A stretch of DNA of 64,000 nt, taken from assembly GCF_058153355.1 (NCBI RefSeq), contig NZ_CM177019.1; one strand, 5' to 3'. The notes beneath the pieces were generated by a model that saw only the letters and a program-made list of their open reading frames with translations, did no database searches and was not told the DNA's origin. Shown one piece after another: positions 43,953-50,047 of this stretch; the stretch's first letter is position 1; each line of letters begins with the position of its first letter. The translations under genes and the position numbers were made by a program.

Positions 43953-44987
43953 ATGAAAATTCGCATAATGTTATTTATATTAATTATGATGGTAATGCCT
44001 GTGAGTTATGCAGCATGTTATGGAGAGTTATCTGCCCAGCATAATTTTGCTGTTCAGGGGGATTTTGCACTTACTCAAACACAAATGGCAACATATGAGC
44101 ATAATTTTAATGATTCGTCATGCGTGAGTACAAATACTATCACCCCTATGAGCCCGTCGGATATTATTGTTGGACTTTATAACGATACCATTAAATTAAA
44201 TTTACATTTTGAATGGATCAATAAAAACAACATCACGTTGTCAAATAATCAGACCAGTTTCACCAATGGTTATTCGGTAACGGTGACACCTGCGGCCAGT
44301 AATGCAAAAGTGAATGTTTCTGCGGGGGGCGGCGGTTCAGTGATGATTAATGGTGTTGCGACATTATCCAGTGCTTCATCATCGACACGCGGGAGTGCTG
44401 CAGTACAATTTTTACTGTGTTTATTCGGTGGCAAGTCATGGGATGCATGTGTAAATAGCTACAGAAATGCATTGGCACAAAATGCAGGTGTCTATTCCTT
44501 TAATCTGACATTGTCATACAACCCGATAACCACAACCTGCAAACCGGACGATTTATTAATTACTTTAGAGAGTATTCCCGTTTCACAATTACCAGCTACA
44601 GGTAACAAAGCAACAATAAATAGTAACAAAGGGGATATTGTTCTGCGTTGTAAAAACTTATTAGGTCAACAAAATCAAACATCACGGAAAATGCAGGTGT
44701 ATTTATCAAGTTCTGACTTGTTAACCAACAGCAACACAATACTGAAAGGTGCGGAAGATAATGGCGTAGGATTTATTCTTGAAAGTAATGGTTCTCCAGT
44801 CACACTTTTAAATATCACTAACAGCAGTAAAGAATACACAAATTTAAAAGAAATTGCGGCAAAGTCAAAACTTACAGATACAACGGTTTCAATTCCGATA
44901 ACTGCCAGTTACTACGTCTACGATACAAATAAAATTAAATCTGGCGCACTGGAGGCAACCGCATTAATCAACGTGAAATACGACTAA
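43953..44987 (+). CDS. yehA: Fimbrial protein, adhesin-like
   Basis: 344-aa exported ORF, last gene of the chaperone-usher operon. Confidence 0.75.
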   Translation: MKIRIMLFILIMMVMPVSYAACYGELSAQHNFAVQGDFALTQTQMATYEHNFNDSSCVSTNTITPMSPSDIIVGLYNDTIKLNLHFEWINKNNITLSNNQTSFTNGYSVTVTPAASNAKVNVSAGGGGSVMINGVATLSSASSSTRGSAAVQFLLCLFGGKSWDACVNSYRNALAQNAGVYSFNLTLSYNPITTTCKPDDLLITLESIPVSQLPATGNKATINSNKGDIVLRCKNLLGQQNQTSRKMQVYLSSSDLLTNSNTILKGAEDNGVGFILESNGSPVTLLNITNSSKEYTNLKEIAAKSKLTDTTVSIPITASYYVYDTNKIKSGALEATALINVKYD

Positions 44988-46484: not shown

Positions 46485-46518
46485 TACTCCCCCCCAGTAC
46501 CTGATACTACCCCCAGTA
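46485..46518. promoter_or_regulatory. Tandem RcnR operator sites in the rcnA-rcnR divergent promoter
   Basis: TACT-C7-AGTA at 46485-46499 and TACT-AC5-AGTA at 46505-46518, the G/C-tract inverted repeats described for RcnR/CsoR-family binding. Confidence 0.6.
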
Positions 46519-46566
46519 GAATAATAGTGCTATGATTTTTCATGTTCTTGTTAACCAGGTGTTGCC

Positions 46567-46839
46567 ATGTCTCATACAATCCGTGATAAACAGAAACTGA
46601 AAGCGCGTGCCAGTAAGATTCAGGGCCAGGTCGTGGCGCTCAAGAAAATGCTCGACGAGCCGCACGAATGCGCAGCTGTTCTACAACAGATTGCTGCTAT
46701 CCGTGGCGCGGTAAACGGCCTGATGCGCGAAGTGATTAAGGGGCATCTGACGGAACACATCGTTCACCAGGGGGATGAGCTAAAACGTGAAGAAGATCTG
46801 GATGTCGTTCTGAAGGTGCTGGATTCTTATATCAAATGA
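46567..46839 (+). CDS. rcnR: Ni/Co-responsive repressor (CsoR/RcnR family)
   Basis: 90-aa ORF recognised as RcnR. Confidence 0.9.
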
Positions 46840-46908
46840 AAGTGCCTAATATGGCCGTAGTTGAGGCAATAAATAGAGGGACAAGTGACGTTAAGCTGAA
46901 TTAGAGTA

Positions 46909-46932
46909 AATGGCGTGAGGACACACGCCATT
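46909..46932. terminator. Hairpin between rcnR and the convergent small-protein gene
   Basis: aatggcgtg-aggaca-cacgccatt. Confidence 0.4.
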
Positions 46933-46948
46933 CGAGGATATAGTTTGA

Positions 46949-47263
46949 TTAATTTTCGAAAAATTGCTTCACAGCCCAGCCACCATGACCACCTGGAGTT
47001 ATGAATGAAACAAAACCTTTGTCATCGACGCTCTGGATTTCTACTGTCATTGATTCATCTAACACGCGACATTTATTGGATGTAATGAGACTCAGCATAG
47101 CCTGTTGGTCATTGTCCTGGATGTAACTGATCATCTCGTAAAAGTCAGTTAACTTTTTACAGTTAAATGTACCTTCTTTAAGTGTTGCGCTGTCTCCGTG
47201 ACTTAGTGCGAATGCATTTGGCATCATTGCCACAAAGATGACGGTAACGAGTAGTTTTTTCAT
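46949..47263 (-). CDS. Small secreted hypothetical protein (104 aa)
   Basis: Signal peptide (MKKLLVTVIFVAMMPNAFA); lies in a visibly AT-rich segment. Confidence 0.55.
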   Translation of the reverse strand: MKKLLVTVIFVAMMPNAFALSHGDSATLKEGTFNCKKLTDFYEMISYIQDNDQQAMLSLITSNKCRVLDESMTVEIQSVDDKGFVSFITPGGHGGWAVKQFFEN

Positions 47264-47272
47264 TGTAGCCTC

Positions 47273-47620
47273 TTATAATTCAGAACATTCACTGATGTTG
47301 TAAGTGCCTTTTCTACCATCATCGTTTACGAGATGTAGCACGAAGATGATGGGATTGGCATCAATGAAAGATACAGAGACGTTCCCGCTTTCGGTGCTAT
47401 ACATCTTTGCAATCTGTTTTTCACCAATATATGAAAGATCCCAACTCACTCCGTTCAAGCTAAAATGCATCTGTTTGCCGTCAATATCGATGGAGGATTG
47501 TGCCGTAACGGTTTTCCCATTGCTGCCAATTTGACCCTGCTGAAGAGCATCACATTTATAGGAGCTTGCATAAGTAAATAGAGGTAGTAGCAGAAGTGCA
47601 GCAAAAATTTTACTCTTCAT
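47273..47620 (-). CDS. Small secreted hypothetical protein (115 aa)
   Basis: Signal peptide (MKSKIFAALLLLPLFTYASS), two Cys residues; 9 nt upstream of the 104-aa ORF, so probably a bicistron. Confidence 0.55.
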   Translation of the reverse strand: MKSKIFAALLLLPLFTYASSYKCDALQQGQIGSNGKTVTAQSSIDIDGKQMHFSLNGVSWDLSYIGEKQIAKMYSTESGNVSVSFIDANPIIFVLHLVNDDGRKGTYNISECSEL

Positions 47621-48258
47621 ATTTTCCCTTTGCTTGGATTTGAGTTACCTATTTTGGGGTAGTCATTATAAAACTATTAATTAGTAAAATGAACAAGTTT
47701 TCATTTGTTTAGTAATGGTATTGTTTAGGTTTGAAATTATTACGTACTTTCATAGCAATAGGTTGGATAAACAGCAGTTCAGAGAACAAGTTGCACTATC
47801 TACATACTTTCCCGCTTTCCATTGTATGTTAGGTAATAGATAGCCTTTGCCCGTAAGACTAAAAATATTAGAAATGACTCATTCGAATACCTTCTATTCA
47901 CCTTAATATAGGTTTGATTATTGTAATCGTTTAATGTGTCTTATGGATTTTTTCCTACTTTTCATTTGCATAATATAGGGGGCACAGCATGCTCTTGAAA
48001 TTAATTATTAAGATATTTAAATTTTACAGCACACAACTACTTTTCGTTGTCTTATGTGTTGAACGTACTTCGAGTATAGGTAGGGTTGTATATATATTGC
48101 GTGGGTAGAGTTAGAATAGAGGAGGCATCATTTATAGAATATTCAAGAACGTTAACCTGTGATCAATAAATAAAAATATCAAATGGTGTTCAAACATATT
48201 TTTCTATGAAAAATCCAGCCATCTATGATGAATTTTTAGATCCATTTTAATTAAAGTA

Positions 48259-48537
48259 TGATTATGAACCAATATTTAGCCAAGAATGGTGGTATAGCGC
48301 GTATCCAATGACACCGGAAAACGCATCTATGAAGTCCTTGTTTATCTCTATAAGAGGAAATCAACACTAATAAAATATAGTGATGTAACACATCGAGCAG
48401 GTTGCTCTGATGCTGGTCTTCAACTGTGGCTTAAACAGCTATCAAACTTCGGTGTTATTGAGATGAAAGAATTATCTTTCTCAACTTTCAATCTCAAAAA
48501 GCTAGAGGAAATAGACCTTAATTATTCCACTCTCTAA
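48259..48537 (+). pseudogene. Possible frameshifted gene remnant
   Basis: ATG-initiated frame MIMNQYLAKNGGIARIQ* continues after a +1 shift as …VSNDTGKRIYEVLVYLYKRKSTLIKYSDVTHRAGCSDAGLQLWLKQLSNFGVIEMKELSFSTFNLKKLEEIDLNYSTL*; no clean start or RBS for the long frame. Confidence 0.2.
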
Positions 48538-48673
48538 ACTTATCTCTTTATTTAAAGTAAAAATGAAAATATTATGGTATCAGCTACGTGGTGGTAACTG
48601 GTGTTTATGATCATAGGTACACATATACAGGGAACCCTGGAAAACAAAAGTAATATATTGATGATTTCGTTTG

Positions 48674-48913
48674 TTATAACTTCGTGGTATCAAGTCCGGC
48701 GGCTTTGAGTCGCTCGGTAAGATTTCTCATTTTGCTGAACTCTGTACCAAAGCTGGCTTTAAGTCCTACACCTTCGCAAAACTCTTTTGCCGTGACGTTT
48801 TTAAGATGGTCAGCGTATTTGATCATCTGGAGGTGCATTTCCATCGTTTGGCTATTTCGTGGTGCGCTGCTAATGGCTTGCTTAATGTTCTCGTAGATCT
48901 GGGTTTCTGTCAT
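48674..48913 (-). CDS. Hypothetical 79-aa protein
   Basis: Intact ORF (MTETQIYENIKQAISSAPRNSQ…) with AT-rich upstream region containing tandem direct repeats. Confidence 0.5.
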   Translation of the reverse strand: MTETQIYENIKQAISSAPRNSQTMEMHLQMIKYADHLKNVTAKEFCEGVGLKASFGTEFSKMRNLTERLKAAGLDTTKL

Positions 48914-48934
48914 TTTTTATCTCACCTATCAAAT

Positions 48935-48964
48935 TTAGATAAATAATATAAATTAGATAAATAA
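48935..48964. promoter_or_regulatory. Two direct repeats TTAGATAAATAA (18-bp register) just upstream of the 79-aa ORF
   Basis: Exact 12-nt repeats at 48935-48946 and 48953-48964. Confidence 0.3.
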
Positions 48965-49129
48965 GATAATCAATAGTTTTTACCATATGAATAATGGATG
49001 TGGATTGTTTCTTTTTCATTTCTGATATGGAGTACAAAATGGGGTCACAATGAAGAAGCGATGAATGGAGGCGAGCTTGCATCTGCAAGCCTCTTCCCCT
49101 AATCTGGCACAAAATATAGAGATTCAACC

Positions 49130-49258
49130 AAACGACTCGGGGTGCCCTTCTGCGTGAAGGCTGAGAAATACCCGTATCACCTGATCTGGATAATGCCAGC
49201 GTAGGGAAGTCACGGACCACCAGGTCATTGCTTCTTCACGTTATGGCAGGAGCAAACT
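49130..49258 (+). ncRNA. TPP (THI-box) riboswitch in the thiM leader
   Basis: cggggtgcccttctgcgtgaaggctgagaaatacccgtatcacctgatctggataatgccagcgtagggaa matches the canonical thiM aptamer; the expression platform runs into the thiM ribosome-binding site. Confidence 0.8.
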
Positions 49259-50047
49259 ATGCAAGTCGACCTGCTGAGTTCCGCGCAATCTGCGCACGCG
49301 TTACACCTTTTTCACCAACATTCCCCTCTTGTGCATTGCATGACCAATGATGTGGTGCAAACCTTTACTGCCAATACCTTGCTGGCGCTCGGTGCATCGC
49401 CAGCGATGGTTATCGAAACCGAAGAAGCCAGTCAGTTTGCGGCTATCGCCAGTGCCTTGCTAATTAACGTCGGCACGCAGACGCAGCCACGCGCACAGGC
49501 GATGCGTGCTGCCGTTGAACAGGCAACACACTCTCAAACCCCCTGGACGCTTGATCCGGTCGCGGTTGGCGCACTCGATTATCGTCGCCGTTTTTGTCAT
49601 GAACTTTTATCTTTTAAACCGGCAGCGATACGTGGTAATGCTTCGGAAATCATGGCATTAGCTGGCGTTGCTAATGGTGGACGGGGAGTGGACACCACTG
49701 ACGCCGCAGCTAATGCGATACCCGCTGCACAAACACTGGCACGGGAAACTGGCGCAATCGTCGTGGTCACAGGCGAGGTGGATTATGTTACCGATGGTCG
49801 TCGCACCGTTGGCATTCACGGCGGCAATCCGTTAATGACCAAAGTGGTAGGAACTGGCTGTGCATTATCGGCAGTTGTCACTGCCTGTTGCGCATTACCA
49901 GGCGATATGCTGGAAAATATCGCATCTGCCTGTCACTGGATGAAACAAGCCGGAGAACGCGCCGTCGCCAGAAGTGAAGGGCCTGGCAGTTTTGTTCCCC
50001 ATTTTCTTGATGCGCTCTGGCAATTGACGAAGGAGGTGCAGGCATGA
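49259..50047 (+). CDS. thiM: Hydroxyethylthiazole kinase
   Basis: 262-aa ORF recognised as ThiM, directly downstream of the riboswitch. Confidence 0.9.

Follow-up and report, generated by a model that had tools for sequence, protein, structure and literature searches.

Islands and satellites that target tRNA or tmRNA genes, among them P4 and the PICIs, are the classic example of insertion into the end of a structured-RNA gene, and capsid-forming PICIs carry their own capsid-assembly and packaging set of capsid, portal, protease and terminase. Whereas tRNA is the target of those islands, the parent element of the locus described here appears to have targeted a cis-regulatory TPP riboswitch aptamer, an unusual integration site. 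What is left of it is an AT-rich islet in a 64,000-nucleotide stretch of an E. coli chromosome (contig NZ_CM177019.1 of RefSeq assembly GCF_058153355.1; hereafter the window), where the local gene order is yehA, rcnB, rcnA, rcnR, the islet, the thiM TPP riboswitch, thiM, thiD, yegX and yegW. GC content is 0.31-0.39 in the islet versus ~0.5 in its flanks, and K-12 MG1655 has merely 222 bp between rcnR and thiM. Inside the islet, we assign 48264-48537 as a non-functional pseudogene of a 92-codon winged-helix gene, termed orf92 here, within the decayed remnant of an integrative element, and we put the probability of this reading at about 0.9 (Table 1).

Table 1. Features of the islet and its borders, in window coordinates
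Feature	Coordinates	Strand	Basis or content
AT-rich islet, degraded mosaic remnant of an integrative element	46840-49124		empty-site, junction alignment, GC
Two intact small genes with signal-peptide-like N-termini	46949-47620	-	104 aa, 46949-47263; 115 aa, 47273-47620
Tyrosine integrase 3'-end fragment	47794-47850	+	tblastn, WW2 integrase residues 414-432
Rep-like (HTH_36) 3'-terminal fragment	48107-48250	+	tblastn, SCU-102 Rep229 residues 183-229
Destroyed ribosome-binding site	48251-48263	+	TAAGGAGGnnT of intact alleles changed to TTAAAGTATGATT
Short frame	48258-48311	+	reads MIMNQYLAKNGGIARIQ, then stop; 17 codons, TGA at 48309-48311
Pseudogene proper, frameshifted copy of the 92-aa winged-helix gene (orf92)	48264-48537	+	alignment with six intact alleles, tblastn
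+1 frame	48298-48537	+	79 sense codons (48298-48534), TAA at 48535-48537
Frameshifting lesion, junction of the inferred 5-nt deletion	48306-48307	+	alignment with six intact alleles
HTH_73 (HTH-like domain) gene, intact, 79 aa	48674-48913	-	Pfam PF24718, E 6.5e-31
Tandem 18-nt repeat (AATTTAGATAAATAATAT x2)	48932-48967		just upstream of HTH_73 start
attR core	49125-49206	+	82 nt of TPP aptamer; 100% identical to the WW2 attL copy (blastn)

An earlier note on this DNA, made from its letters alone, had described an ATG-initiated frame beginning at 48259 and, after a single +1 shift, an 80-codon stop-free frame. The short frame in fact opens one base lower, at 48258 (ATG ATT ATG AAC ... CAA TGA), and the stop-free frame exists but comprises 79 sense codons. 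From 48264 onward, the codons of the short frame are homologous to residues 1-14 of an intact 92-aa protein, and 48307-48534 in the +1 frame corresponds to residues 16-92, comprising the helix-turn-helix, the wing and the C-terminal strand. The possibility raised in the note that neither frame has a homologue thus does not hold, as both match the 92-aa family. No ATG, GTG or TTG occurs in the +1 frame ahead of the ATG at 48463, which yields just 24 aa, so that this frame is not translatable alone except for the 24-aa tail.

Homology, rather than frame length, establishes real gene ancestry. A tblastn comparison of the intact 92-aa protein with the islet aligned residues 16-92 at 75% identity (E 4e-36), and over the same residues amino acid identity was 75-82% to WP_000617148.1 (92 aa) and to WP_000617145.1 and WP_000617153.1 (81 aa). 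Using the conceptually repaired window product as query, the family search returned 18 clusters, exclusively from E. coli; the commonest (P0002; 92 aa, 699 member sequences) ends in ...FIYSTL. The window C-terminus, ...EEIDLNYSTL, is thus how a full-length member of the family normally ends, and the 81-aa form of WW2 and SCU-102 is itself shortened by a TAG. Stop-codon loss or read-through as an explanation of the last 10 codons was ruled out because the 92-aa form is the common full-length one. When the islet was compared by megablast with 5,426 complete E. coli genomes, the matches included WW2 and SCU-102, in which an intact 81-aa gene is annotated beside thiM; the islet DNA is colinear with SCU-102 over 48171-49300 (~87% identity) and with WW2 over 48232-49300 (~88%). 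The earlier note had suggested looking for an intact homologue in related strains, and single-ORF homologues do occur at this same chromosomal site in WW2, SCU-102 and KOr019, as well as at other sites.

The family is small and has few recognizable kin. An exhaustive HMM search found just 14 representatives among 1.84 billion proteins, and the 81/92-aa protein gave nothing below E 0.1 in Pfam, NCBIfam or PHROGs. Neither that search of 1.84 billion representatives nor the 5,426 complete genomes contained any closer window-type allele in intact form, and a collection of 5.8 billion proteins held no intact window-type protein, its best match being a 76-aa 'partial' entry. By tblastn, orf92 homologues were found in 0 of 50,697 phage records and in 1 of 72,556 plasmid records, and a phage or plasmid origin of orf92 was rejected on these counts. 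Six other alleles (P0009, P0011, P0012, P0016, P0017 and P0018 in alignment A4) carry differing in-frame internal deletions of 4 to 31 residues, all of which fall in the region spanning helices 1 and 2 and would disrupt the predicted winged-helix fold. The deleted alleles suggest that decay of orf92 is widespread outside the frameshifted clade too.

The lesions were defined by aligning the window copy with six intact alleles, two of them distant relatives of full length from the exhaustive profile search (P0020 and P0021; ~45-60% identity). The ancestral start codon corresponds to the second ATG of the window copy (48264) and the ancestral stop to 48535-48537. Between the start codon and the conserved Asn-Asp codons lie 48 nt in 6/6 intact alleles and 46 nt in both the window and O157:H7 Sakai. 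The two frames of the earlier note are confirmed, and its single +1 shift is refined to a net loss of 2 nt, most plausibly an in-frame gain of 3 nt (~48291-48293 by MAFFT) with a 5-nt loss at 48306/48307 a few codons farther downstream, the exact placement of both indels being alignment-dependent. Both lie outside homopolymer runs, and the TGA at 48309-48311 arose at the deletion junction. Furthermore, the Shine-Dalgarno sequence AGGAGG of the intact alleles reads AAGTATGA in the window, a mutation that also created the spurious upstream ATG at 48258. The single ORF of ~92 codons, with start codon and RBS, that marks a functional member is absent here; judged from its sequence, the window copy is a pseudogene of the family rather than a functional member.

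These lesions are inherited. Sakai has the identical frameshift, Shine-Dalgarno loss and frame ends, and a sensitive blastn census located an orf92 copy in 710 of the 5,426 complete genomes. The window-type allele accounts for 339 of the 5,426, with 9 genomes at >=99% identity and 330 at 95-99%, the latter group including O157:H7 Sakai and EDL933 as well as O55:H7. The islet, left half included, is present in the same 339 genomes. All sampled full-length window-type rows (21/21) span exactly 280 nt, so none contains a frame-restoring indel, and no annotation lies beneath the match; PGAP likewise marks nothing at the pseudogene in the window. A copy at 60-90% identity is carried by about 371 genomes, and in nearly all sampled rows of this group an intact 'hypothetical protein' is annotated.

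Substitution patterns, computed over 66 aligned codons, separate the two classes of allele. Among intact alleles dN/dS is 0.07-0.13, a sign of strong purifying selection that identifies orf92 as a genuinely protein-coding gene. The long frame of the window compared with intact alleles gives 0.08-0.16 at a dS of 0.7-1.1. Between the window and Sakai there are 4 nonsynonymous changes and 1 synonymous change (ratio 1.17), a pattern of five substitutions in all that fits neutral drift after inactivation. The long frame is still open in both frameshifted lineages, as expected by chance at a divergence of only 2.5%.

AlphaFold2 on the family alignment, with P0002 as the intact homologue, returned a pLDDT of 83 and a pTM of 0.75, and the model (helices 17-30, 39-46 and 50-63; strands 36-38, 66-70 and 75-81) has the winged-helix topology H1-S1-H2-H3-S2-wing-S3, with extra N-terminal and C-terminal strands around it. 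Foldseek searches of the PDB with this model returned winged-helix domains only (the CodY C-terminal domain, ArsR, MarR and Z-alpha), with TM-scores of ~0.5-0.6 over 60-70 residues and 11-24% identity; with a best E of only 6e-3, this is a generic fold match that assigns no family. The CodY C-terminal domain, ArsR/SmtB, MarR and Z-alpha share with intact orf92 the predicted H1-strand-H2-H3-hairpin wing, but have no sequence-level relationship to it and lack its extra terminal strands. The intact orf92 product is thus predicted to be a small winged-helix protein that presumably binds DNA.

In every context examined, orf92 directly follows, on the same strand, a gene for a Rep-like protein of 229-274 aa, and this order is kept in E. 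coli and in distant relatives. The spacing is 11-16 nt in the E. coli forms and ~20 nt in one distant relative, with a 4-nt overlap in the other. Where scanned, the Rep-like protein contains an HTH_36 domain and, in PHROGs, resembles phage replication initiators and DnaD-like loaders. Taken together, fold and gene order lead us to infer that the intact orf92 protein may be a DNA-binding partner in the replication or regulation module of the element. No origin-type repeats (iterons) were found inside orf92 in the window or in locus L007. In the E. coli elements, the Rep-like (HTH_36) proteins finish with DDFDIPF (L002 3301-4020; L003 3382-4071; L007 9241-9984). This tail resembles the tip of the E. 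coli SSB C-terminus, DFDDDIPF, which recruits SSB-interacting proteins. It was rejected as a trait of the Rep-like family as a whole, since it is absent in the distant relatives L012 and L013.

The same module has left a trace immediately upstream of the pseudogene. The Rep-like fragment aligns over 47 aa at 48107-48247 (45% identity, E 3e-9), contains an internal stop, and ends at the TAA at 48248-48250, 13 nt ahead of the ancestral orf92 ATG; its tail (48221-48250) has degenerated to IYDEFLDPF before the stop. Farther to the left, the integrase fragment retains 15/19 residues identical (E 4e-6), also with an internal stop, and provides moderate evidence because the match is short (19 aa). 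The two small genes on the opposite strand both have homologues within the PEC389 element (~76% DNA identity), and the 115-aa gene shows 42% amino acid identity to a gene of the WW2 element. They match PHROG families phrog_33226 and phrog_35183 full-length, the 104-aa one being annotated 'outer membrane protein', and are regular cargo of the thiM-site element family. The earlier note's picture of a degraded acquired element is borne out by these further gene fragments of one element family. In the islet, the 115-aa gene stands to the left of the integrase fragment, the reverse of the order in WW2 and PEC389, and derivation from a WW2-like or PEC389-like element through simple deletions was rejected for this reason. 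Not being collinear with any single intact element, the islet needs tandem insertion, inversion or recombination in its decay history. Outside the islet, yehA (43953-44987, + strand) is an intact 344-aa ORF in the window and is flagged by PGAP as frameshifted in Z0117EC0005, the closest complete genome (99.9% identical across the islet).

The parent elements can be recognized in WW2, KOr019 and PEC389, where 7.7-10.8 kb lie between two copies of the TPP riboswitch (L004 9166-16994; L010 13139-20967; L015 2756-13742). A tyrosine integrase gene begins 66 nt after the left copy. The left side of attL is host DNA, including a K-12-type segment upstream of the aptamer, and the left side of attR is element DNA. 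On this sequence arrangement, the elements appear to use the thiM TPP-riboswitch aptamer as their attachment site, duplicating >=82 nt; the integrase would sit behind the host thiM promoter and a copy of the aptamer, and its expression could be thiamine-responsive. Cargo is variable, with an HNH endonuclease in WW2 (L004 10764-11489) and an 871-aa TIR-domain protein in PEC389 (L015 5141-7756), both candidate anti-phage defence genes. A literature search found no description of integration at the thiM riboswitch, and one on the Sakai and EDL933 locus tags returned nothing relevant.

The window retains the right end of such an element. The right-end module, HTH_73 with attR joined to thiM, is present, and the full riboswitch at 49128-49224 scores 71.2 bits against Rfam RF00059. 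Positions 46500-49400 hold this one TPP copy only, with no attL after rcnR, and the window has no full-length integrase next to an attL, only the 19-aa C-terminal trace; a single copy without attL identifies a remnant rather than an intact element. The K-12-type segment upstream of the thiM riboswitch, which presumably holds the native thiM promoter, is absent from the whole window, so that islet-derived DNA is all that precedes thiMD here and in the O157:H7 clade. A consensus scan of the + strand from 48914 to 49127 detected no sigma-70-like site.

HTH_73 is the sole intact gene surviving from the right-hand module. Its product is 98.7% identical to the WW2 protein. The gene is still held by strong purifying selection (dN/dS 0.03-0.08), and its dS to WW2 of 0.16, versus ~1.0 for orf92, points to mosaic ancestry. 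The 18-nt tandem repeat overlaps the only promoter-like site on the HTH_73 strand (48973 to 48945) and could be a putative operator of HTH_73. Other loci also carry HTH_73 homologues, among them one in BL21(DE3) and one beside an integrase on a plasmid. Promoter-like sites were rarer than in shuffled sequence (3 vs 6.2), the same scan found no terminator-like sites, and Rfam recognized on the islet only the TPP riboswitch, plus a meaningless miRNA match at E 0.9.

Several other explanations for the two frames were weighed. A frame left open by chance in AT-rich DNA, without descent from any gene, would sit well with the absence of any match in curated protein families and with the frame statistics: in 2,000 dinucleotide-preserving shuffles of 47621-48673 (32% GC), read in six frames, the longest stop-free run averaged 69 codons and reached >=77 codons in 25% and >=80 codons in 20.6%. 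Since ~20% of shuffles thus match the observed 79-80 codons, length is no evidence for a gene, and the 'somewhat notable' open frame of the earlier note loses its force. Such an origin is nevertheless refuted by the tblastn match to a family under purifying selection, and is further opposed by the conserved position after the Rep-like gene and by DNA colinear with intact loci from 48171-48232 onward, which leaves it a negligible probability. That a gene really intact was misassembled or misread is likewise refuted: indels are a frequent assembly error, but Sakai and every sampled member of the 339 independent complete genomes share the frame structure, the indels avoid homopolymers, and the loss of the Shine-Dalgarno sequence goes with the frameshift.

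Two further alternatives grant the gene ancestry and suppose that the locus still works. Programmed +1 ribosomal frameshifting of the prfB type could join the frames and still yield the full-length protein, and the 0-frame stop does stand in a weak context (TGA followed by C, in CAA TGA C) with the +1 frame open as far as the ancestral stop. Homologues outside the window-type allele are plain single ORFs, however, making the frameshift derived rather than a family trait; at the site ATC CAA TGA C, the P-site CAA would not re-pair in the +1 frame (AAT), no internal Shine-Dalgarno lies upstream of the shift site, and the gene's own RBS is destroyed. The neutral-like substitutions between the window and Sakai, five changes in number, also speak against it, and we regard this mechanism as very improbable. 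Somewhat less remote, though still unlikely, is co-option of the remnant, whether as a small peptide (17-aa leader, or 24-aa ORF from 48463), an antisense transcript or part of a regulatory region of thiMD or HTH_73. The whole islet is fixed in a large clade, it must supply the transcription signals of thiMD in place of the absent native promoter segment, and a weak promoter-like site overlaps 48235-48262. Against this, promoter-like sites are below shuffle level, terminator-like sites and credible Rfam matches are lacking, the pseudogene lies >580 bp upstream of the riboswitch with the opposite-strand HTH_73 in between, and the same five substitutions look neutral. Nothing in the sequence suggests expression or a present function of the orf92 pseudogene.

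A decayed integrative element is the preferred setting. Its source lies among phage-satellite-like integrative elements of E. coli and close relatives, one of which entered the TPP aptamer ahead of thiM, duplicating ~82 nt. Decay probably followed in the common ancestor of the O157:H7/O55:H7 clade and the window strain. The element was stripped of attL, of its cargo and of the greater part of both the integrase and rep genes, and orf92 lost its Shine-Dalgarno sequence, acquired the net -2 nt frameshift and appears to have drifted neutrally afterwards. That the remnant persists most likely reflects neighbours that are still needed, namely HTH_73 and the islet-derived DNA that forms the sole upstream region of thiMD.

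The finding itself is real yet ordinary: an unannotated, anciently frameshifted pseudogene. It adds this pseudogene and two smaller gene fragments to the islet of ~339 complete E. coli genomes, and it recasts the islet as a decayed integrative element instead of a set of orphan genes, which aids annotation and the reading of O157-specific DNA. The context is more notable, as element DNA has replaced the presumed native thiMD promoter and the source family is uncharacterised, capsid-encoding and satellite-like.

The capsid-encoding relatives reside elsewhere in the genome. A conserved element of ~8-12 kb occurs in E. coli and relatives (L011 15118-27320; L012 8925-18965; L013 8805-16885), at thrW in strain 10153. 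Besides the Rep-like gene and intact orf92, it carries genes for an integrase, for a major capsid protein of the lambda E type and for a ~615-aa tape-measure-like protein, together with four to five small ORFs of no assigned family and, in 2/3 of the L011-L013 loci, a Dit-like tail protein. The capsid protein belongs to Phage_cap_E and is only ~25% identical to any deposited phage capsid. Pfam and PHROGs identified no terminase, portal or protease in this element, four of whose small ORFs are unassigned. A literature search found nothing on thrW satellites with capsids, and the element may represent an undescribed satellite type.

A wider joint reading, tentative and on balance doubtful, would treat the pseudogene as a scar of E. 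coli integrative elements that form an undescribed family. Such elements may use the thiM TPP aptamer as att site, with the integrase behind the thiM promoter and thiMD dependent on element DNA; they may carry variable candidate anti-phage cargo (the TIR-domain protein and the HNH nuclease); and they may have a Rep-like and winged-helix module in common with the undescribed ~12 kb capsid-encoding thrW element, the E. coli Rep-like initiators possibly ending in the SSB-tail-like DDFDIPF. The remnant in the O157:H7 clade may then persist by supplying the thiMD upstream region.

Set beside described systems, the thrW relatives (~12 kb) resemble PICIs and capsid-forming PICIs in being integrase-bounded and in having a rep module and their own major capsid protein. 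They differ from capsid-forming PICIs in encoding tape-measure-like and Dit-like proteins instead of terminase, portal and protease, and with no packaging set and a distant capsid, membership in that group is not established. The window copy, having lost attL and the integrase, is immobile, in contrast to the tRNA- and tmRNA-targeting islands. Its parent element has much in common with those islands of the P4 and PICI type: a tyrosine integrase beside one att site, a duplicated structured-RNA segment (82 nt or more), a replication module and variable cargo.
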